13,000 nucleotides of DNA from the IMG/VR virus record IMGVR_UViG_2571042690_000014. One strand, written 5' to 3'. Source of the stretch: a virus (lineage: Duplodnaviria > Heunggongvirae > Uroviricota > Caudoviricetes). Below the pieces are notes generated by a model. That model made no database searches, was not told where the DNA came from, and worked only from the letters and a program-made list of their open reading frames with translations. Position 1 is the stretch's first letter, and the number at the start of each line of letters is the position of its first letter. A program made the translations under genes and the position numbers. This document shows positions 2,298 to 13,000 of this stretch, piece by piece.

Positions 2298-5200
2298 ATG
2301 GGCAAAGGAAGCAGTAAGGGGCATACCCCGCGCGAAGCGAAGGACAACCTGAAATCCACGCAATTACTGAGTGTGATCGATGCCATCAGCGAAGGGCCGA
2401 TTGAAGGTCCGGTGGATGGATTAAAAAGCGTGCTGCTGAACAGTACACCGGTGCTGGACAGTGAGGGGAATACCAACATCTCCGGTGTTACGGTGGTGTT
2501 CCGGGCAGGTGAGCAGGAGCAGACACCGCCGGAGGGATTTGAATCCTCCGGTTCCGAGACGGTGCTGGGTACGGAAGTGAAATACGACACGCCGATCACC
2601 CGCACCATCACGTCGGCAAACATCGACCGTCTGCGCTTTACCTTCGGTGTGCAGGCACTGGTGGAAACCACCTCAAAGGGGGACAGGAATCCATCGGAAG
2701 TCCGCCTGCTGGTTCAGATACAACGTAACGGTGGCTGGGTGACGGAAAAAGACATCACCATTAAGGGTAAAACCACCTCACAGTATCTGGCCTCAGTGGT
2801 GGTGGATAACCTGCCGCCGCGCCCGTTTAATATCCGGATGCGCAGGATGACGCCGGACAGCACCACAGACCAGCTGCAGAACAAAACGCTCTGGTCGTCA
2901 TACACCGAAATCATCGATGTGAAACAGTGCTACCCGAACACGGCACTGGTCGGCGTACAGGTGGACTCGGAGCAGTTCGGCAGCCAGCAGGTGAGTCGTA
3001 ATTATCATCTTCGCGGGCGCATTCTGCAGGTGCCGTCGAACTATAACCCGCAGACGCGGCAATACAGCGGTATCTGGGACGGAACGTTTAAGCCGGCATA
3101 CAGCAACAACATGGCCTGGTGTCTGTGGGATATGCTGACCCATCCGCGCTACGGCATGGGAAAACGTCTTGGTGCGGCAGATGTGGATAAATGGGCGCTG
3201 TATGTCATCGGCCAGTACTGCGACCAGTCGGTGCCGGACGGCTTTGGCGGCACGGAGCCGCGCATCACCTGTAATGCGTACCTGACCACACAGCGTAAGG
3301 CGTGGGATGTGCTCAGTGATTTCTGCTCGGCGATGCGCTGTATGCCGGTATGGAACGGGCAGACGCTGACGTTCGTGCAGGACCGGCCGTCGGATAATGT
3401 GTGGACCTATAACCGCAGTAATGTGGTGATGCCGGATGATGGCGCGCCGTTCCGCTACAGTTTCAGCGCCCTGAAGGACCGCCATAATGCCGTTGAGGTG
3501 AACTGGACTGACCCGGATAACGGCTGGGAAACGGCAACAGAGCTTGTGGAGGACACGCAGGCCATTGCCCGTTATGGTCGTAATGTCACGAAGATGGATG
3601 CCTTTGGCTGTACCAGCCGGGGGCAGGCACACCGCGCCGGGCTGTGGCTGATTAAAACGGAGCTGCTGGAAACGCAGACCGTGGACTTCAGCGTGGGCGC
3701 AGAAGGGCTTCGCCATGTACCGGGCGATGTTATTGAAATCTGCGATGATGACTATGCCGGTATCAGCACCGGTGGTCGTGTGCTGGCGGTGAGCAGCCAG
3801 ACCCGGACGCTGACGCTCGACCGTGAAATCACGCTGCCATCCTCCGGCACCACGCTGATAAGCCTGGTTGACGGAAGTGGCAATCCGGTCAGCGTGCAGG
3901 TCCAGTCCGTCACCGACGGCGTGAAGGTGAAAGTGAGCCGGGTTCCTGACGGCGTTGCAGAATACAGCGTGTGGGGGCTGAAGTTGCCGACGTTGCGCCA
4001 GCGCCTGTTCCGCTGTGTGAGTATCCGTGAGAACGACGACGGCACGTATGCCATCACCGCCGTGCAGCATGTACCGGAAAAAGAAGCCATCGTGGATAAC
4101 GGGGCGCACTTTGACGGCGACCAGAGCGGCACGGTGAATGGTGTCACGCCGCCAGCGGTGCAGCACCTGGCCGCAGAAGTCACTGCAGACAGCGGGGAAT
4201 ATCAGGTGCTGGCGCGATGGGACACACCGAAGGTGGTGAAGGGCGTGAGCTTCCTGCTCCGTCTGACCGTAACAGCGGACGACGGCAGTGAGCGGCTGGT
4301 CAGCACGGCCCGGACGACGGAAACCACATACCGCTTCAGGCAACTGGCGCTGGGGCGTTACACGCTGACGGTCCGGGCGGTAAATGCGTGGGGGCAGCAG
4401 GGCGATCCGGCATCGGTATCGTTCCGGATTGCGGCACCGGCAGCGCCTGTCACTATTGAACTGATACCAGGGTATTTTCAGATAACAGCGGTCCCGAAAC
4501 TGGCTGTATATGACCCGACGGTGCAGTTTGAGTTCTGGTTCTCGGAAAAGCGGATTATCGATATCAGGCAGGTTGAAACCAGCGCGCGTTATCTTGGTAC
4601 GGCGCTGTACTGGATAGCCGCCAGTAGCAATATTAAGCCGGGTTATGATTATTACTTTTATATCCGCAGCGTGAACACCGTTGGTAAATCGGCATTTGTG
4701 GAGGCCGTTGGTCGGGCGAGCGATGATGCGGAAGGTTATCTGAATTTTTATAAAGGGTTGATCAATAAAACGCATCTCGGCAAGGAACTGCTGGAAAACT
4801 TTGAGCTGACGGAAGATAACGCCAGCAAACTGGAGGAGTTTTCGAAAGAGTGGAAGGACGCCAACGATAAATGGAATGCCATGTGGGGCGTCAAAATTGA
4901 GCAGACCAAAGACGGCAAACATTATGTCGCGGGGCTTGGCCTCAGCATGGAGGATACGGAGGAAGGCAAACTGAGCCAGTTCCTGGTTGCCGCTAACCGT
5001 ATCGCGTTTATTGACCCGGCAAACGGGAATGAAACGCCGATGTTTGTGGCGCAGGGCAACCAGATATTCATGAACGACGTGTTCCTGAAGCGCCTGACGG
5101 CCCCCACCATTACCAGCGGCGGTAATCCTCCGGCATTTTCCCTGACACCGGACGGGCGGCTGACGGCGAAAAATGCCGATATCAGCGGTAACGTGAATGC

Positions 5201-5693
5201 GAACTCCGGGACGCTCAACAACGTCACGATTAACGAGAACTGCCGGGTTCTGGGAAAACTGTCCGCGAACCAGATTGAAGGCGATCTCGTTAAAACAGTG
5301 GGCAAAGCTTTCCCCCGTGACTCCCGGGCACCGGAGCGGTGGCCATCAGGGACCATTACCGTCAGGGTTTATGACGATCAGCCGTTTGACCGGCAAATTG
5401 TTATTCCGGCTGTGGCATTCAGTGGCGCTAAGCATGAGAGAGAGCATACTGATATTTACTCCTCATGCCGTCTGATAGTGCGGAAAAACGGTGCTGAAAT
5501 TTATAACCGTACCGCGCTGGATAATACGCTGATTTACAGTGGCGTTATTGATATGCCTGCCGGTCACGGTCACATGACGCTGGAGTTTTCGGTGTCAGCA
5601 TGGCTGGTAAATGGCTGGTATCCCACAGCAAGTATCAGCGATTTGCTGGTTGTTGTGATGAAGAAAGCCACTGCAGGCATCACGATTAGCTGA
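2298..5693 (+). CDS. J: Central tail fibre / host specificity protein J (lambda gpJ-like)
   Basis: The 1131-aa ORF is near-identical to lambda J over the N-terminal ~980 residues ([43 protein letters not shown]...). A GGAG ribosome-binding site precedes the ATG. The C-terminal ~150 aa diverge from lambda J as I remember it. Confidence 0.95.
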
Positions 5694-5760: not shown

Positions 5761-6360
5761 ATGCGTAAATTATGTGCTGTTATTCTATCCGCAGTAGTCT
5801 GGCTGGTTGCCGCTGGTACGCCAGCGAGCGCAGCAGAGCATCAGTCCACACTAAGCGCCGGGTATCTTCAGACCCATACTGATATGCCAGGCAGTGATGA
5901 CCTGAAGGGCATTAACGTGAAATACCGTTATGAATTTACGGACACGCTGGGGCTGGTGACGTCATTCAGTTATGCCAATGCCAAAGATGAGCAAAAAACG
6001 CATTACAGCGATACCCGCTGGCATGAAGATTCAGTGCGTAACCGCTGGTTCAGCATGATGGCGGGGCCATCTGTACGCGTGAATGAATGGTTCAGTGCTT
6101 ATGCGATGGCAGGTGTGGCTTACAGCCGTGTTTCGACGTTCTCCGGGGATTATCTCCGCGTAACTGACAACAAGGGGAAAACGCACGATGTGCTGACCGG
6201 AAGTGATGACGATCGCCACAGCAACACGTCTCTGGCGTGGGGAGCTGGCGTGCAGTTTAACCCGACCGAATCCGTGGCCATTGATATTGCTTATGAAGGC
6301 TCCGGCAGTGGCGACTGGCGCACTGACGGTTTCATCGTGGGTGTCGGTTATAAGTTCTGA
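5761..6360 (+). CDS. lom: Outer membrane protein Lom (Ail/Lom/OmpX family beta-barrel), phage moron
   Basis: The 199-aa ORF has a signal peptide (MRKLCAVILSAVVWLVAAGTPASA), the Lom motif KGINVKYRYE and a C-terminus DIAYEGSGSGDWRTDGFIVGVGYKF ending in an aromatic residue, matching lambda Lom. The ribosome-binding site is GAGAGG, and the position after J is as in lambda. Confidence 0.9.
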   Translation: MRKLCAVILSAVVWLVAAGTPASAAEHQSTLSAGYLQTHTDMPGSDDLKGINVKYRYEFTDTLGLVTSFSYANAKDEQKTHYSDTRWHEDSVRNRWFSMMAGPSVRVNEWFSAYAMAGVAYSRVSTFSGDYLRVTDNKGKTHDVLTGSDDDRHSNTSLAWGAGVQFNPTESVAIDIAYEGSGSGDWRTDGFIVGVGYKF

Positions 6361-6556: not shown

Positions 6557-7015
6557 ATGGGGAACGAAAAGAGCTTAGCGCACACCCGATGGAACTGTAA
6601 ATATCACATAGTTTTTGCGCCAAAATACCGAAGACAGGTGTTCTACAGAGAGAAGCGTAGAGCAATAGGCAGTATTTTGAGAAAGCTGTGTGAGTGGAAA
6701 AGTGTACGGATTCTGGAAGCTGAATGCTGTGCAGATCATATCCATATGCTTGTGGAGATCCCGCCCAAAATGAGCGTATCCGGCTTTATGGGATATCTGA
6801 AAGGGAAAAGCAGTCTGATGCTTTACGAGCAGTTTGGTGATTTGAAATTCAAATACAGGAACAGGGAGTTCTGGTGCAGAGGGTACTACGTCGATACGGT
6901 GGGTAAGAACACGGCGAAGATACAGGATTACATAAAGCACCAGCTTGAAGAGGATAAAATGGGAGAGCAGTTATCGATTCCCTATCCGGGCAGCCCGTTT
7001 ACGGGCCGTAAGTAA
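6557..7015 (+). CDS. tnpA: IS200/IS605-family Y1 (HUH) transposase TnpA
   Basis: The 152-aa product from the Met at 6557 (MGNEKSLAHTRWNCKYHIVFAPKYRRQVF...) has the HUH motif HIHMLVEI and a downstream catalytic Tyr region (REFWCRGYYVDTVG). The ORF track's longer form (6506) begins upstream of the ribosome-binding site and is less likely. Confidence 0.85.
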   Translation: MGNEKSLAHTRWNCKYHIVFAPKYRRQVFYREKRRAIGSILRKLCEWKSVRILEAECCADHIHMLVEIPPKMSVSGFMGYLKGKSSLMLYEQFGDLKFKYRNREFWCRGYYVDTVGKNTAKIQDYIKHQLEEDKMGEQLSIPYPGSPFTGRK

Positions 7016-7135
7016 CGAAGTTGGATGCAAATGTCAGATCGTGTGCGCCTGTTAGGGCGCGGCTGGTAAGAGAGCCTTATAGGCGCATTTGAAAAACCTC
7101 CGGCTATGCCGGAGGATATTTATTGTGGAGTGGAT

Positions 7136-9514
7136 ATGGCAGCAGTAAAAATCTCAGGTGTGCTGAAAGATGGTGCGGGAAAACCAATACAGAACTGCAC
7201 TATTCAACTGAAGGCAAAGCGTAACAGCACCACGGTACTGGTGAACACGGTGGCTTCTGAAAATCCGGATGAAGCCGGACGTTACAGCATGGATGTTGAG
7301 CATGGTCAGTACAGCGTCACCCTGCTGGTTGAAGGTTTTCCGCCTTCACATGCCGGGACCATTACCGTCTATGAAGGTTCCAGACCAGGTACGCTGAATG
7401 ATTTTCTCGGTGCCATGACGGAGGATGATGTCCGACCGGAGGCACTGCGCCGCTTTGAGCAGATGGTGGAAGAAGCGGCACGCAACGCTGAAGCCGCCTC
7501 TCAGAGCGCAGCGGCGGCAAAGAAATCCGAAACTGCAGCGGCATCATCGAAGAACGCGGCGAAAACCTCAGAAACGAATGCAGCTAACAGCGCACAGGCG
7601 GCAGCGACCTCAAAGACTGCATCGGCAAACTCCGCGACAGCAGCCAAAAAATCAGAAACCAACGCGAAAAATAGCGAGACAGCCGCAAAGACGAGCGAAA
7701 CCAACGCAAAGTCCAGCCAGACGGCAGCGAAAACCAGCGAAACGAATGCCAAAGCCAGTGAAACTGCGGCAAAAAACAGCCAGGTTGCAGCAGCCCAAAG
7801 CGAGAGCGCGGCAGCCGGTTCTGCGACTTCAGCAGCTGGATCAGCAACTGCTGCGGCTAACAGCCGGAAAGCTGCGAAGACGAGTGAAACTAACGCAAAG
7901 TCCAGCCAGACGGCAGCGAAGACCAGCGAAACGAATGCCAAAGCCAGCGAAACTGCGGCGAAAAACAGTCAGGATGCAGCAGCCCAAAGCGAGAGTGCTG
8001 CAGCTGGTTCTGCAAGCGCGGCGGCTGCTTCTGCCACTGCATCAGCCAACAGTCAAAAAGCAGCAAAAACCAGTGAAACCAATGCAAAGACAAGCGAGAC
8101 TGCAGCGGCGAACTCGGCGAAAGCATCCGCTGCAAGCCAGACCGCTGCAAAAGCAAGTGAAGACGCAGCCAGAGAGTATGCAAGCCAGGCAGCAGATCCG
8201 TATAAATATGTCTTACAGCCGCTGCCTGATGTGTGGATACCGTTTAACGATTCACTGGATATGATTACGGGCTTTTCGCCATCATATAAAAAGATTGTTA
8301 TTGGTGACGACGAAATAACGATGCCTGGCGACAAGATTGTTAAGTTTAAACGTGCATCGAAAGCAACCTATATTAACAAATCTGGTGTGCTGACAGAGGC
8401 TGCCATTGATGAGCCACGATTTGAACGTGATGGCCTGCTTATTGAGGGGCAAAGAACTAATCTTCTGCTTAATTCAACAAATCCATCTAAATGGAATAAG
8501 TCAGGCAATCTGGAACTCACAGAAATATCCACGGATTCTTTTAATTTTACTTATGGGAGATTTACTGTAAAAGATACTCTTATTGGTCAGACAAGTGCTA
8601 TTAATATCGTAACGATTTCTGGCAGTAAAGGGTTTGATGTCACAGGTGATGAAAAATATGTGACCATTTCATGCCGTGTAAGAAGTGATGTTGAAAATAT
8701 AAGGTGTCGTTTAAGATTTGAACACCATGATGGTTATACTTACACTTTTTTGGGAGATGCTTACCTCAATTTATCAACACTTGTAATTGATAAAACTGGT
8801 ACTGCTGCAGACCGTATTATTGCAAAGGCTGTAAAAGATGAGGTTACTGGTTGGATTTTCTATCAGGCTACAATTAATGCACTAGATACAGAGAGCATGA
8901 TTGGTGCGATGGTTCAATACGCTCCTGTAAAAGGTTCAGGTACAGCATCTGGAGACTATCTGGATATCGCAACTCCACAAGTGGAAGGTGGATCAAGTGC
9001 TTCGTCATTTATTGTAACTGATATAACTGCAAGCACTCGCGCAAGCGATATGGTGACAGTCCCAATCAAGAATAACCTTTATAATCTTCCTTTTACGGTT
9101 CTTTGTGAGGTACATAAGAACTGGTATAAAACGCCAAATGCAGCACCGCGTGTTTTTGATACCGGCGGTCATCAAACCGGAGCGGCTATTATTCTTGGCT
9201 TCGGTCGTTCAACAGATTACGACGGATTTCCTTATTGTGATATAGGTTTGGCTAACAGACGGGTAAACGAAAACGCATCGCTTGAAAAAATGGTTATGGG
9301 GATGCGTGTAAAGTCAGATCAGTCTACGTGCTCAGTAAGTAACGGGCGTATATCCAGCGAAAAGAAAGCCACATGGTCCTATATTCAGAACTCCGCAATT
9401 ATCCGTATTGGAGGCCAGACTACAGCCGGGTTGCGTCATTTATTTGGTCATGTCAGGAATTTCAGAATATGGCACAAGGCATTGACTGATGCTCAGATGG
9501 GGGAGTCAATCTAA
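7136..9514 (+). CDS. stf: Side tail fibre protein Stf (lambda Stf-like N-terminus, divergent distal domain)
   Basis: From the ATG at 7136, MAAVKISGVLKDGAGKPIQNCTIQLKAKRNSTTVLVNTVASENPDEAGRYSMDVEHGQYSV... matches the lambda Stf N-terminus. It is followed by Ala/Ser/Thr-rich KTSETNAK-type repeats and an AT-richer C-terminal region that does not match lambda. The ribosome-binding site is GGAG at 7127-7130; the ORF track start at 7106 lies inside the IS200 right end and is unlikely. Confidence 0.85.
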   Translation: MAAVKISGVLKDGAGKPIQNCTIQLKAKRNSTTVLVNTVASENPDEAGRYSMDVEHGQYSVTLLVEGFPPSHAGTITVYEGSRPGTLNDFLGAMTEDDVRPEALRRFEQMVEEAARNAEAASQSAAAAKKSETAAASSKNAAKTSETNAANSAQAAATSKTASANSATAAKKSETNAKNSETAAKTSETNAKSSQTAAKTSETNAKASETAAKNSQVAAAQSESAAAGSATSAAGSATAAANSRKAAKTSETNAKSSQTAAKTSETNAKASETAAKNSQDAAAQSESAAAGSASAAAASATASANSQKAAKTSETNAKTSETAAANSAKASAASQTAAKASEDAAREYASQAADPYKYVLQPLPDVWIPFNDSLDMITGFSPSYKKIVIGDDEITMPGDKIVKFKRASKATYINKSGVLTEAAIDEPRFERDGLLIEGQRTNLLLNSTNPSKWNKSGNLELTEISTDSFNFTYGRFTVKDTLIGQTSAINIVTISGSKGFDVTGDEKYVTISCRVRSDVENIRCRLRFEHHDGYTYTFLGDAYLNLSTLVIDKTGTAADRIIAKAVKDEVTGWIFYQATINALDTESMIGAMVQYAPVKGSGTASGDYLDIATPQVEGGSSASSFIVTDITASTRASDMVTVPIKNNLYNLPFTVLCEVHKNWYKTPNAAPRVFDTGGHQTGAAIILGFGRSTDYDGFPYCDIGLANRRVNENASLEKMVMGMRVKSDQSTCSVSNGRISSEKKATWSYIQNSAIIRIGGQTTAGLRHLFGHVRNFRIWHKALTDAQMGESI
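7688..8065 (+). repeat. Tandem duplication of a 189-bp (63-codon) unit inside stf
   Basis: AAGACGAGCGAAACCAACGCAAAGTCCAGCCAGACGGCAGCGAAAACCAGCGAAACGAATGCCAAAGCCAGTGAAACTGCGGC... from 7688 recurs from 7877 with only a few substitutions. It encodes two copies of TSETNAKSSQTAAKTSETNAKASETAAKNSQ.AAAQSESAAAGSA. Confidence 0.75.
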
Positions 9515-9795
9515 TGAAAGATTTAACACTCAAATTTGCAGACAGGGCCGACTTTTCGGCCTTTATGGATAGCATTGGCTATTATGATGACGAGTCGATG
9601 CAGGATGATATTCTTATTGACGTGATAGGTAACGTGTACAAAGAAACCGGAGAACTGACTGAAGATGGCGAACCGGTATGTGTTAAGGAAGATGGATATT
9701 ATGTAAACGTGCGCATCATTAATGATGCAAAAAAATCGTCAATATTCGATGAATACGCGGTTGTAGTTGAACATCAACTTCGTGGCTGGATGTGA
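9514..9795 (+). CDS. Hypothetical small acidic protein (93 aa), translationally coupled to stf
   Basis: The start overlaps the stf stop (TAATG) and is preceded by a GGGGGAG ribosome-binding site. The product is rich in Asp/Glu (MKDLTLKFADRADFSAFMDSIGYYDDESMQDDILIDV...) with no recognisable motif, and the sequence is AT-rich like the distal part of stf. Confidence 0.5.
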   Translation: MKDLTLKFADRADFSAFMDSIGYYDDESMQDDILIDVIGNVYKETGELTEDGEPVCVKEDGYYVNVRIINDAKKSSIFDEYAVVVEHQLRGWM

Positions 9796-9804
9796 GGGAG
9801 ACAA

Positions 9805-10509
9805 ATGGCTACATCGACAGTAATTCCAGGAGACATCACCACGTTAAAGGGAGATGTCAGTAAAGCCAAGGAAGATATTTCCTCAATTAACGGAAAAGTA
9901 TCAACGCTTCAGGCTGATATGACCAGTGCAAAGCAGGATATCAGCACCAGATACACAAAAACTGAAGTTGATAATAAGCTGAAAAACAAACTGGAAGTGA
10001 ACGCTCTGGAAAGCGGTCGTTATGGTGGAGATTTTTACCCGTTGACTGGCCGTGAAGCGTTTTATTTGTGGGGATTGGGCACGACTACAGCGGCGGCAAA
10101 CCTTTATCTTAATCCTGACCCCGCAATTTCGTCTGTGCTGCGGTCAACATCGTCTATCCGCTATAAACATTCAGTAGAGACAATAGATTCAGAGCACGCC
10201 GATCTCATTTTCAGGATGCGCCCTGTGTGGTACAGGTCACAATGCGAAAATGACAGGCGTGACTGGGGATTCTACGGATTGATTGCCGAGGAAGTAGGAG
10301 AAATTGCCCCTCAGTTTGTACACTGGCGACCAGCTAACGAAGATGATGCACCGGAAGCTATTTCCAGCAATGGCCTTGTTGCCGAAGGTGTAATGTACGA
10401 ACGTCTGGTTGTTCCACTGATTCACCATATCCAGAAGCTGACTGAAAGAGTTGATGAACTTGAGTCAGAATTAAAGTTGTTATCCGTTTCCCGAAGCGAT
10501 ATCGGATAA
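9805..10509 (+). CDS. Fibre-like coiled-coil protein with C-terminal intramolecular-chaperone (peptidase S74-like) domain
   Basis: It has a GAGGGAG ribosome-binding site. The N-terminus carries repeated coiled-coil-like units (GDVSKAKEDISSINGKVSTLQADMTSAKQDISTRYTKTEVDNKLKNKLE). The C-terminus fits the S74 / chaperone-of-endosialidase pattern: SIRYK (S-x-R-x-K), then LIFRMRPVWYRS, WGFYGLIAEEVGEIAPQFV and VMYERLVVPLIHHIQKLTERVDELESEL. The assignment is from memory of the family signature, not a search. Confidence 0.55.
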   Translation: MATSTVIPGDITTLKGDVSKAKEDISSINGKVSTLQADMTSAKQDISTRYTKTEVDNKLKNKLEVNALESGRYGGDFYPLTGREAFYLWGLGTTTAAANLYLNPDPAISSVLRSTSSIRYKHSVETIDSEHADLIFRMRPVWYRSQCENDRRDWGFYGLIAEEVGEIAPQFVHWRPANEDDAPEAISSNGLVAEGVMYERLVVPLIHHIQKLTERVDELESELKLLSVSRSDIG

Positions 10510-10519
10510 AGGAGGAGTA

Positions 10520-10807
10520 ATGGATATAAGCCCCTTACTTCATGCACTTTGTGCTGTGGCTGCGCAAACACTGGTTGGTCTTTTTACCGGAAACTGGGCT
10601 TACGGAGCGATAGCCGGTTGTACGTTCTTCATTGCGCGTGAACACACCCAGGCAGAATATCGCTGGATCGAAATGTTCGGGCATGGCAAGCGAATGAATA
10701 TGCCGTGGTGGGGCGGTTTTGATCCGCGCGCGTGGGATGTGACAAGCCTGATGGATTTTGCTGTGCCGGTGGTGGCGTGTCTGCTGATCTGGATGTTGAT
10801 CCGTTAA
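10520..10807 (+). CDS. Hypothetical small membrane protein (95 aa)
   Basis: It has a strong GGAGGAG ribosome-binding site 3 nt after the preceding stop. There are hydrophobic segments at both ends (LLHALCAVAAQTLVGLFTG, AIAGCTFFIA, FAVPVVACLLIWMLI). GC content is higher than in the two genes before it. Confidence 0.5.
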   Translation: MDISPLLHALCAVAAQTLVGLFTGNWAYGAIAGCTFFIAREHTQAEYRWIEMFGHGKRMNMPWWGGFDPRAWDVTSLMDFAVPVVACLLIWMLIR

Positions 10808-11159
10808 ATATAAAAGCCGCAGTAACTTGCCATGATAGGATACTGCGGCTGGCTGGTTAACTTTCGATAGTGCGAGTATTGAATGATTTCCAGCCGTTAC
10901 TGATTTTATATAACGGCAGTGGAATTATTCAACACACAGGCAAAACACAGGCAAAACGGAATAAGCTGAGAAAAAAAGCGTGCTTTCCCAATCTGGGGCA
11001 AATCACGTCTGAATGACACCTGAAAACAGGTGGTGGACTCAAGAAGGCTTGGAATATTCTTCTTTAATGTTATGTAATTCATTGATTTTTCGTGTACGAT
11101 TTTAAGACATTTATTCCAAGAAGAATTTTTAACTCTTTGATTTTTCTACTCTGTATCAT

Positions 11160-11221
11160 CGGTCTCGAAAACCGGAGTAGGGGCAACTCTACCGGGGGTT
11201 CAAATCCCCCTCTCTCCGCCA
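11160..11221 (+). other. Prophage att core: 62-nt 3' fragment of a tRNA-Ser (anticodon CGA, serU-type) gene, from anticodon stem to CCA
   Basis: CGGTCTCGAAAACCGGAGTAGGGGCAACTCTACCGGGGGTTCAAATCCCCCTCTCTCCGCCA has an anticodon stem-loop (anticodon CGA), a long variable arm, a T-arm GGGGGTTCAAATCCCCC and a 3' acceptor strand plus CCA. There is no 5' acceptor strand or D-arm upstream, so it is a partial copy, as expected for an att duplicate where a phage integrates into a tRNA gene. Confidence 0.7.
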
Positions 11222-11770
11222 CTTTATCAATGACTTATCTCCCGACTTCCCGCCTTGCTTTTCCTAAACAGAACAATCGTAGGATATTCTTGAAGGGTTA
11301 GATCGTCACTGTTTTCTGTTCGATACTGTGACATTCAGCACTTGATTCGCTATGGGTCTGACAGGAAGGTTTCGAGCGAAAATCTACAGTTATTCAGTCG
11401 TTTTCTTATCGGTCACCATTATTCTTTTAGACATTGATCCTATGAAACTGCCGCAAAGTTGCTGGCGGGAACTGAAGTTGCGTAGAGAAGGGGTCAATAA
11501 TTGAGCCAAAAAAGGAACGCGGCCGTCAGATTAAAGCCGCGGGACAAAGTCCATAATTTCCAAGAGTTGTTGAATTTCCCAGCTTTTTTGAAAGCCTTTG
11601 TATCATACTAACAAGTAAAAAAGGTTTAAACACCAAAATTAACCTATATTTCTGGTTAGCTTTACCATGACAGATGACTTGCTCCTGGAGACATTTGCGC
11701 TGCCAGTCTGTATGGCTGAGTTGTGTATTTATTGTTCGCCTTTTTCTCAGTTTTTTTCTACAGACATAAT

Positions 11771-11802
11771 AAAAAAGACACGACTCAAGTATGAGCGTGT
11801 CT
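11771..11802 (-). terminator. Rho-independent terminator on the minus strand, downstream of zinT
   Basis: On the minus strand AGACACGCTCATACTTGAGTCGTGTCT is followed by TTTTTT (plus-strand AAAAAAGACACG...CGTGTCT), about 90 nt beyond the zinT stop. Confidence 0.5.
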
Positions 11803-11890
11803 GAGTTTGTCTTACTTATTTGTCTTGGTAAATTATTGTTGTTACTACCAGGCACTGTTCTGTTAAATAACTGAAGTCAGCGCAAAAAAA

Positions 11891-12541
11891 TCAATGAGAC
11901 ATCATCTCCTCGACCACTTCTTCGCTACTCAACTGATAGGGATAATACGTTGGCCAGTTTTCCATTTCATTCAATAAAGATTGCTGGGAATCATTACCCA
12001 TAAAAATGTGAAAATGAGATGATTTTCGTGGTGCAATTATATGATCGCTAAATTGTATATATTTAGGGGCTTTGCTTTCAGGATCTTTACATTCGAATAA
12101 GTAACGAACGCCTTTCTTGCCTGATTTATAGGTGAGTATTTTGTATCCATCGTAATCATATTTACAGGATGTTGTTTCATTATTTCTATGGAATTCGACA
12201 ATGCCGTCCTCAATGCCAATCATTTCGATATCTGTCGCATAACCTTTGCGATAATAATCTTTAATTTCAGCAAATGTTTTGGTTTTATCTGCATCCGCTT
12301 TCTTCTGAAAGACGGGGTCAAGTTTGCCACTTTGCAGTAAAGGGTAAACGGATTGCCAGACTCCATCCCAGTCACTGAGCGTTCGGTTTTGTACATTGGT
12401 ATCATCAAAAACACCATTAGCAGCTTTTTGTTCGACCTCTGTTAAGGGTTTGCCGTGTGAGTGATGACCATGCGAAAAGGCAGGAGCGCTAACAATAAAG
12501 ACACCTAAAGCAACAGCCAGTTTATGAAGACGAATCGCCAA
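11891..12541 (-). CDS. zinT: ZinT (YodA), periplasmic zinc/cadmium-binding protein (host gene)
   Basis: The 216-aa product [47 protein letters not shown]...[17 protein letters not shown] has a His-rich N-terminus after the signal peptide and matches E. coli ZinT from memory. The start appears to be TTG, with a GGAGG ribosome-binding site 8 nt upstream. Confidence 0.9.
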
Positions 12542-12574
12542 AACAATTTCCTCCAGAGTTAATGTACATGATGT

Positions 12575-12595
12575 GTAATGTTATATTGTAACATA
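12575..12595 (-). promoter_or_regulatory. Zur-box-like palindrome in the zinT promoter
   Basis: The near-palindrome ATGTTATATTGTAACAT lies 34-54 nt upstream of the zinT start and resembles the Zur operator consensus (GAAATGTTATA-N-TATAACATTTC type). zinT is a known Zur-regulon member. Confidence 0.55.
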
Positions 12596-12801
12596 TGAAA
12601 AAATGCAACAACTCATTAGGAAATGAGAGCATGGTATTCTCAGGTGTATTGAACTATCTTATTGAAATAAAATAAATTATTCTGGTGATGAAAGGTTGAT
12701 GACAAACGAAACATAACTTGATGCGATCTGTGTGGGCCGGATAGGGCGCTTGAACTGCACCCCAAATGTTGGACATAATCTGACATCTGAAGGTGCAGTT
12801 T

Positions 12802-13000
12802 ATGAAACATTCATTTGAAGTAAAACTTGCCGCTGTAAATCATTACCTGGCTGGTCATGCAGGCATCATTTCTACGGCAAAACTCTTTCAACTTTCTCAC
12901 ACCAGCCTCTCACACTGGATTAATCTTTTTCTTCTTCACGGTCCTCGGGCACTGGATTGCAGACACAAGCGTAGCTATTCTCCTGAAGATAAACTTTGCG
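12802..13000 (+). CDS. IS3-family (IS150-like) transposase OrfA, N-terminal part (runs off the window end)
   Basis: From the ATG at 12802 (ribosome-binding site AGGTG) the translation MKHSFEVKLAAVNHYLAGHAGIISTAKLFQLSHTSLSHWINLFLLHGPRAL... follows the helix-turn-helix OrfA pattern of IS150-like elements (FE.RL..VNHY....G..IS..F......W..L...HG). There is no stop codon within the window. Confidence 0.55.
   Translation, partial: MKHSFEVKLAAVNHYLAGHAGIISTAKLFQLSHTSLSHWINLFLLHGPRALDCRHKRSYSPEDKLC

Follow-up and report, generated by a model that had tools for sequence, protein, structure and literature searches.

The 13,000-nucleotide stretch of viral DNA analysed here (IMG/VR record IMGVR_UViG_2571042690_000014), which we refer to as the window, contains 62 nucleotides of a serine tRNA gene between phage tail-fibre genes and the bacterial gene zinT. 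The position of this piece raises the question of whether it marks the end of a prophage and, if so, where within it the phage and host strands were exchanged. The window almost certainly contains attR, the right junction of a lambdoid prophage of approximately 41.3 kb integrated in the serU gene of E. coli ST131. The support for this reading comes from sequence comparison, and no evidence contradicting it was found. The comparisons described below confirm the piece as the ordinary scar of the integration of a lambda-like prophage into E. coli serU.

The segment at positions 11160–11221 of the plus strand (CGGTCTCGAAAACCGGAGTAGGGGCAACTCTACCGGGGGTTCAAATCCCCCTCTCTCCGCCA) is identical in all 62 nucleotides to positions 29–90 of the K-12 serU gene for tRNA-Ser(CGA), including the terminal CCA. 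It represents the displaced 3′ part of serU and is the attR copy of the homology block shared by attP and attB. The base at 11159 is a T, which differs from C28 of the tRNA, and the sequence further upstream does not match tRNA positions 1–28. The full cloverleaf, the 5′ strand of the acceptor stem, and the D arm of a functional tRNA-Ser are missing from the window copy, and the phage P arm is found upstream instead. Thus, the original prediction of a serU-type tRNA-Ser fragment that runs from the anticodon stem to the CCA and lacks the 5′ half was correct, as was the expectation that the window does not harbour an intact tRNA, since ARAGORN did not call any tRNA gene in the 13 kb. An E-value-based search of positions 10800–11700 against Rfam returned only sub-threshold matches (Plastid-psbl-rps4 on the minus strand, the tmRNA T-arm, and sX4), which can be attributed to the tRNA-like sequence, since none of them reached its own gathering score. 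The first 19 nucleotides of the piece occur once in the window, even if up to three mismatches are allowed (0.01 occurrences expected by chance). The homology to K-12 and that to prophage-free ST131 both start precisely at 11160, and the coordinates of the piece are accurate to the nucleotide.

The genes to the left of the tRNA piece belong to a phage, and all of them are encoded on the plus strand. The gene for tail tip protein J (2298–5693) was assigned from the ORF list and from the RefSeq annotation of the identical sequence of strain EC958, and the latter also identifies a prophage gene for an outer membrane protein of the Ail/Lom family (5761–6360). Between lom and the tail fibre gene, the prophage contains an inserted IS200C transposase gene (6557–7015). 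The tail fibre gene contains the Pfam domain phage_tail_N (E = 2.6e-67) and occupies positions 7106–9514 as the longest ORF, with the RefSeq start at 7136. Three small ORFs of the tail-fibre region (9514–9795, 9805–10509, and 10520–10807) are the final phage genes before attR, and the second of them encodes a Peptidase_S74 chaperone-type domain according to Pfam. The last ORF is followed by non-coding phage DNA. Its first part (10808–10963) is present in attP-bearing contigs upstream of the P arm, and the P arm itself, retained at attR, spans positions 10964–11159 of the plus strand. Neither K-12 nor the prophage-free ST131 strain 81009 contains a counterpart of the P arm, which is collinear with three attP-bearing viral contigs and with phages ev099 and mEp332. 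The non-coding DNA behind the last phage ORF also includes a hairpin with a perfect 10-bp stem (10815–10824 and 10841–10850) and a tandem pair of 11-nucleotide sequences at 10930–10951 (CAACACACAGG and CAAAACACAGG).

The DNA to the right of the tRNA piece is bacterial. The homology of the window to K-12 extends over positions 11160–11668 with 96.3% identity and resumes at 11891, within zinT. Between these segments, approximately 995 bp of K-12 DNA, including yodB, are replaced by 222 bp of unrelated DNA at window positions 11669–11890. The same replacement is present in a prophage-free ST131 strain, and therefore it is a difference between lineages that is unrelated to the prophage. The host intergenic DNA between serU and zinT is 669 bp long (11222–11890), as delineated by the comparison with K-12, and it is identical in strain 81009. 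The zinT gene (11891–12541, minus strand) was identified by both RefSeq and Pfam (ZinT, E = 2.1e-85). The arrangement of phage structural genes on the left and a host metal-homeostasis gene on the right, proposed from the sequence before, is borne out by the RefSeq annotation of EC958 and by the Pfam assignments of the tail genes and ZinT. It was also proposed that zinT is the first host gene; this holds in the present lineage only because it lacks the yodB of K-12, and cannot be generalized, as yodB stands between serU and zinT in K-12 and O157. Beyond zinT, the EC958 annotation continues with a copy of IS1397, msrQP, hiuH, and hprRS. The copy of IS1397, an IS3-family element, begins at window positions 12802–13000 on the plus strand, between zinT and msrQ, and is also present in prophage-free strain 81009.

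Four unannotated ORFs are located around the junction: 10906–11082 on the minus strand, 11092–11301 on the plus strand and across the junction, 11352–11504 on the plus strand, and 11526–11855 on the minus strand. They did not yield any Pfam matches and were treated as non-genes. The last of them spans the break of the yodB replacement. A scan of positions 10700–12000 for promoters and terminators did not score better than shuffled sequences. The host DNA immediately after the CCA (11222–11237, CTTTATCAATGACTTA) partly resembles, over approximately 16 nucleotides, the P′ flank of the phage (AAATTCAATCACTTA, positions 32627–32642 of the EC958 segment L002, minus strand). The P′ version of this flank is conserved in matching Klebsiella and Citrobacter phages, in which it reaches 15–20 nucleotides beyond the core.

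The prophage boundary was established by comparison with chromosomes in which the site is empty. Strain 81009, a prophage-free ST131 isolate, is 100% identical to window positions 11160–13000 (1841 bp), starting from tRNA position 29. The order in 81009 is mtfA, serU, 669 bp, zinT, and IS1397, and its serU is uninterrupted. An alignment with a prophage-free serU–zinT region was suggested previously as a check; serU and zinT are contiguous in the prophage-free genomes, and the break relative to the window is exactly at 11160. The empty site (attB) was reconstructed by joining the mtfA-side flank of EC958 to window positions 11160–11460, and this 601-nucleotide reconstruction is contiguous in 3856 of 5426 complete genomes, in many of them with 100% identity and full coverage. 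Because of the comparison with the empty site, the DNA to the left of 11160 can be identified as an insertion, whereas the sequence from 11160 onward is the uninterrupted chromosome.

The opposite end of the prophage can be examined in complete genomes, since window positions 10500–13000 are 100% identical to many ST131 chromosomes, including those of EC958, JJ1886, and JJ1887. The prophage of EC958, traced from the window, contains genes for tail, head, terminase, lysis, Q, replication, immunity, exonuclease, and a tyrosine recombinase. Beyond the integrase gene lie a tRNA-Ser gene, mtfA, a tRNA-Asn gene, and the yersiniabactin island. ARAGORN identified an intact tRNA-Ser(cga) at L002 32643–32732, beside the tyrosine integrase, mtfA, and asnT. 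The original prediction had expected such an intact copy next to an integrase located outside the window, and both were found at the far end of the EC958 prophage. The distance between the intact serU and the 3′ end of the integrase gene is 27–52 bp. The two copies of the 62-nucleotide block in EC958 are 41,315 bp apart and identical in 60 of 62 positions.

The integrase gene of the EC958 prophage (L002 31565–32615; EC958 2178564–2179614) is labelled as a frameshifted pseudogene in RefSeq, which suggested a locked prophage. The label was not reproduced, because the gene is a continuous ORF of 341 residues that is 99.7% identical to the integrase of an attP-bearing viral contig, and the idea of a locked prophage was rejected. 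Pfam recognized the catalytic domain Phage_integrase, the central domain Phage_int_M, and an N-terminal SAM-like domain in the ORF. The box II motif of the integrase, read by eye, is HDLK instead of the usual HxxR. The EC958 prophage also carries iss, encoding a serum-survival lipoprotein, near the lysis genes (L002 15354–15647), and two tRNA genes upstream of Q (L002 19310–19559), one for Arg-tct and the other with the anticodon cat, which is Ile in the RefSeq annotation and Met according to ARAGORN. A literature search for the name of this prophage in EC958 (Phi1–Phi7) and its stated insertion site did not provide anything usable.

The attP of the phage was reconstructed from the two prophage ends. 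A megablast search with this 662-nucleotide reconstruction as the query did not find any GenBank phage record with the full attP. Partial matches in ev099, mEp332, and PhiR70_1 were rejected as attP, as they are attR-type fossils, and the record of vB_EcoS-689R5 was rejected because it derives from a prophage and contains the host genes mtfA and asnT. The true attP was obtained only from IMG/VR, where a scan for exact patterns of the predicted phage-side junctions spanning the core retrieved three viral contigs (L007–L009). These contigs are collinear with the P arm of the window, the 62-nucleotide core, and the P′ arm from the integrase side of EC958. The order of L008 is the tail fibre gene (793 residues), ORFs of 93, 234, and 95 residues, attP, and the integrase (341 residues), which corresponds to the gene order of the window closed onto the integrase.

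The site of the strand exchange can be narrowed down from two differences between the copies of the block. Where the window copy has A at 11179 and T at 11190, the intact serU of the lysogen has G and C, respectively. The two bases are partners in the variable-arm stem, and the replacement of A48:U59 by G48:C59 is therefore compensatory. All three attP contigs contain G and C at the marker positions, whereas K-12 and the empty site of 81009 contain A and T, and hence A 11179 and T 11190 in the window (11179–11190, plus strand) are two diagnostic bases of the host type. It follows from the sorting of the markers that the regenerated tRNA gene is phage DNA from position 48 at the latest, and that the attR copy is host DNA from there. 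At attR, the phage T at 11159 is followed by the host A at 11179, whereas attL combines the host C28 with the phage G48. Therefore, the exchange occurred within tRNA positions 29–47 (window 11160–11178, plus strand; CGGT-CTCGAAA-ACCG-GAGT). According to the fold and the position of the anticodon given by ARAGORN, this 19-nucleotide interval holds four of the five anticodon-stem pairs, the 7-nucleotide loop CTCGAAA, and four further nucleotides.

The markers thus support an exchange bracketed between tRNA positions 28 and 48, in the region of the anticodon stem-loop, and the cleavage sites are probably located within this bracket. The earlier proposal of integration at the anticodon loop of tRNA-Ser agrees with this interval. 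The accompanying designation of the entire 62-nucleotide segment as the att core has to be divided: the segment is indeed the att repeat, but as a whole it is the block of identity between attP and attB, and the markers confine the crossover core to its first 19 nucleotides. The 7-nucleotide anticodon loop may serve as the overlap region, and the two halves of the stem as the core-type binding sites of the integrase.

The arms of attP contain repeats that may bind the integrase. The motif CTTGGAATW has six matches in the 10.7-kb attP contig L008, compared with 0.26 expected. Five of the six matches flank the core, two of them in P and three in P′. Positions 4360–4391 of L008 are part of this cluster. 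The motif matches in the window are limited to the two P-arm copies: a candidate arm-type site with the sequence CTTGGAATA at 11048–11056 on the plus strand, suggested by the clustering, and a second, inverted candidate CTTGGAATA at 11112–11120 on the minus strand, which belongs to inverted repeat I2. Based on their distribution, we infer that the CTTGGAATW repeats are candidate arm-type sites of the integrase with a 2+3 layout like that of lambda. Another repeat, TAAYTCWTTGATTTTTC, has two copies in the P arm, at 11075–11091 and 11130–11146, with a spacing of 55 nucleotides.

Based on the structures of the attachment sites, the course of the integration can be proposed. The attP of the phage contains the copy of serU positions 29–90, with the P arm between this copy and the tail-fibre genes and the P′ arm between the copy and the integrase gene. 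The phage tyrosine integrase probably exchanged strands in the anticodon stem-loop. The resulting attL, next to the integrase gene, contains a complete and presumably functional serU, composed of the 5′ part from the host and the 3′ part with G48:C59 from the phage. At attR, captured in the window, the original 3′ part of the host gene was displaced by 41 kb. It adjoins the P arm of the phage on one side and, on the other, the unaltered host DNA that leads to zinT.

The junctions differ in how often they occur. Of 5426 complete E. coli genomes, 288 contain the attR junction of the window, and those listed are of ST131 types. The mtfA–serU–integrase junction of EC958, which corresponds to attL, was found with at least 80% coverage in 1144 of these genomes, including O157, and the junction of one O157 genome is 99.0% identical to that of EC958 over 520 bp. 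This difference in numbers points to a modular exchange among serU prophages, and replacement of serU prophages has been reported (PMC7067040). Both would accord with the possibility that the junction was formed by RecA-dependent recombination across the 62 nucleotides, or that an older serU prophage was replaced and attR was inherited from the earlier occupant. We consider such a history very unlikely. The location of the exchange in the 19-nucleotide interval of the anticodon stem-loop is expected for an integrase and is not favoured in a homologous exchange, and one attP in the viral contigs provides a match for both arms, P at attR and P′ at attL. Moreover, a replacement would alter the history of the feature but not its identity as attR.

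Another alternative is that the partial tRNA gene and the DNA to the right of it form a fossil attR inside a phage genome, with the true boundary of the prophage further to the right or elsewhere. Such fossils do exist. The free lambdoid phages ev099, mEp332, and PhiR70_1 contain a counterpart of window positions 10964–11499 with 96–97% identity (L004 2501–3035 in mEp332 and L005 2501–3035 in ev099), comprising the P arm, the host-type 62-nucleotide serU fragment, and 278 bp of the E. coli DNA downstream of serU. The counterpart is followed by a gene for an AraC-type regulator and transposase remnants, and a different integrase is encoded approximately 2.4 kb away. The junction in these phages is a fossil attR captured together with flanking host DNA, and its position inside the genomes implies that an excision was once imprecise or that the phages recombined with a serU prophage. 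Because the same attR travels inside free phages, a prophage end is proven not by the sequence of the junction alone but by synteny with strains in which the site is empty. In the case of the window, this synteny refutes the idea of an internal fossil: positions 11160–13000 are 100% identical to prophage-free ST131 through zinT and IS1397, the EC958 chromosome continues into msrQP, hiuH, and hprRS, the other end is an intact serU with phage-type markers beside the integrase gene and host mtfA, and the empty site joins both flanks exactly. The probability that the fossil explanation applies here is negligible.

A decayed tRNA pseudogene, or what is left of serU after a local deletion or duplication without site-specific recombination, is just as improbable as an explanation of the piece. 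Only the bare presence of a partial tRNA gene speaks for such an origin. The fragment is perfect and without decay, starts where the attP homology starts in several unrelated phages, and has its intact counterpart at a distance of exactly one prophage length; the attP contigs together with the precise empty site refute this origin.

The identification of the window as attR of a serU prophage agrees with what is known about the locus and about integration into tRNA genes, and the serU attachment site is already known, both in kind and at this locus. Prophage Sp14 of strain Sakai is integrated at serU, between yodB and the gene for tRNA-Ser(cga) (PMC8190617), serU is among the conserved prophage loci of O145:H28 (PMC7067040), and GenBank includes a phage named SerU-LTIIb. 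Like the prophage of the window, the O157:H7 prophages of the Sp14/CP-933U type occupy the serU locus from the mtfA–serU side to the yodB/zinT side. Both are lambdoid, with the integrase gene at the tRNA end and the tail-fibre genes at the opposite end. However, the O157:H7 prophages carry other cargo and a different tail-fibre end, and the neighbour of their attR is yodB, the gene missing from the window lineage. Relatives of the integrase, with 58–60% amino-acid identity over 96–97% of the length, are encoded by Salmonella phage ST64B, Klebsiella phages KpF5 and P7641, and Citrobacter phage Chris1. The hosts and backbones of these phages differ from those of the window prophage, and KpF5, P7641, and Chris1 contain a serU-like core that begins at the same tRNA position, approximately 100–130 bp from the integrase gene.

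The integration of tyrosine-integrase elements into tRNA genes has reportedly been classified by Williams (Nucleic Acids Res 2002), with the anticodon loop as one of the sublocations. The window prophage shares with this class the block of identity that begins in the 5′ strand of the anticodon stem and extends through the tRNA gene to its 3′ end, the symmetric stem around a 7-nucleotide loop, the regeneration of the tRNA gene by phage DNA, and the integrase gene at the regenerated 3′ end. The strand-exchange interval matches the classical anticodon-loop mode of integration; no difference from the class was found, with the cleavage positions of the window prophage bracketed from the sequence only. 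In lambda, attP contains the arm-type sites P1–P2 and P′1–P′3, and the 15-bp core is located between gal and bio. The window prophage resembles lambda in having a tyrosine integrase, a complex attP with arms, and candidate repeats in a 2+3 arrangement, and in both phages the genes of the tail and b-region end at attR and the integrase gene is at attL. In contrast to the 15-bp core between gal and bio, the window prophage uses a tRNA gene with a 62-nucleotide block of homology, and its integrase is not similar in sequence to that of lambda, its relatives being the integrases of ST64B, KpF5, and Chris1.

The insertion is a textbook case of integration into a tRNA gene, and therefore it does not present anything new to explain. 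A bolder proposal is that the 3′ half supplied by the phage deliberately alters the only tRNA-Ser(CGA) of the host, and that the displaced 62-nucleotide piece is transcribed as an RNA resembling a tRNA half. We regard this as very unlikely. If it were true, the change from A48:U59 to G48:C59 in the variable arm, which is recognized by seryl-tRNA synthetase, could alter the charging, stability, or fragment production of the tRNA, and the RNA from the displaced piece, located downstream of phage DNA, could have a role in lysogeny or superinfection exclusion. In a milder version, the fossil attR with its host DNA in ev099, mEp332, and PhiR70_1 would not be neutral but would be under selection, for example as a patch of homology that permits recombination with resident serU prophages.

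The occurrence of a partial tRNA gene beside tail-fibre genes does not by itself prove the end of a prophage. For a prophage common in ST131, the comparison with empty-site strains fixes the right boundary to the base, with host DNA starting at 11160 or, at the latest, at 11179. The serU expressed by the lysogen is a hybrid of host and phage DNA with a compensated change in the variable arm. A prophage with this integrase module occupies serU in approximately one fifth of the complete E. coli genomes, which makes the gene a major hotspot of integration.
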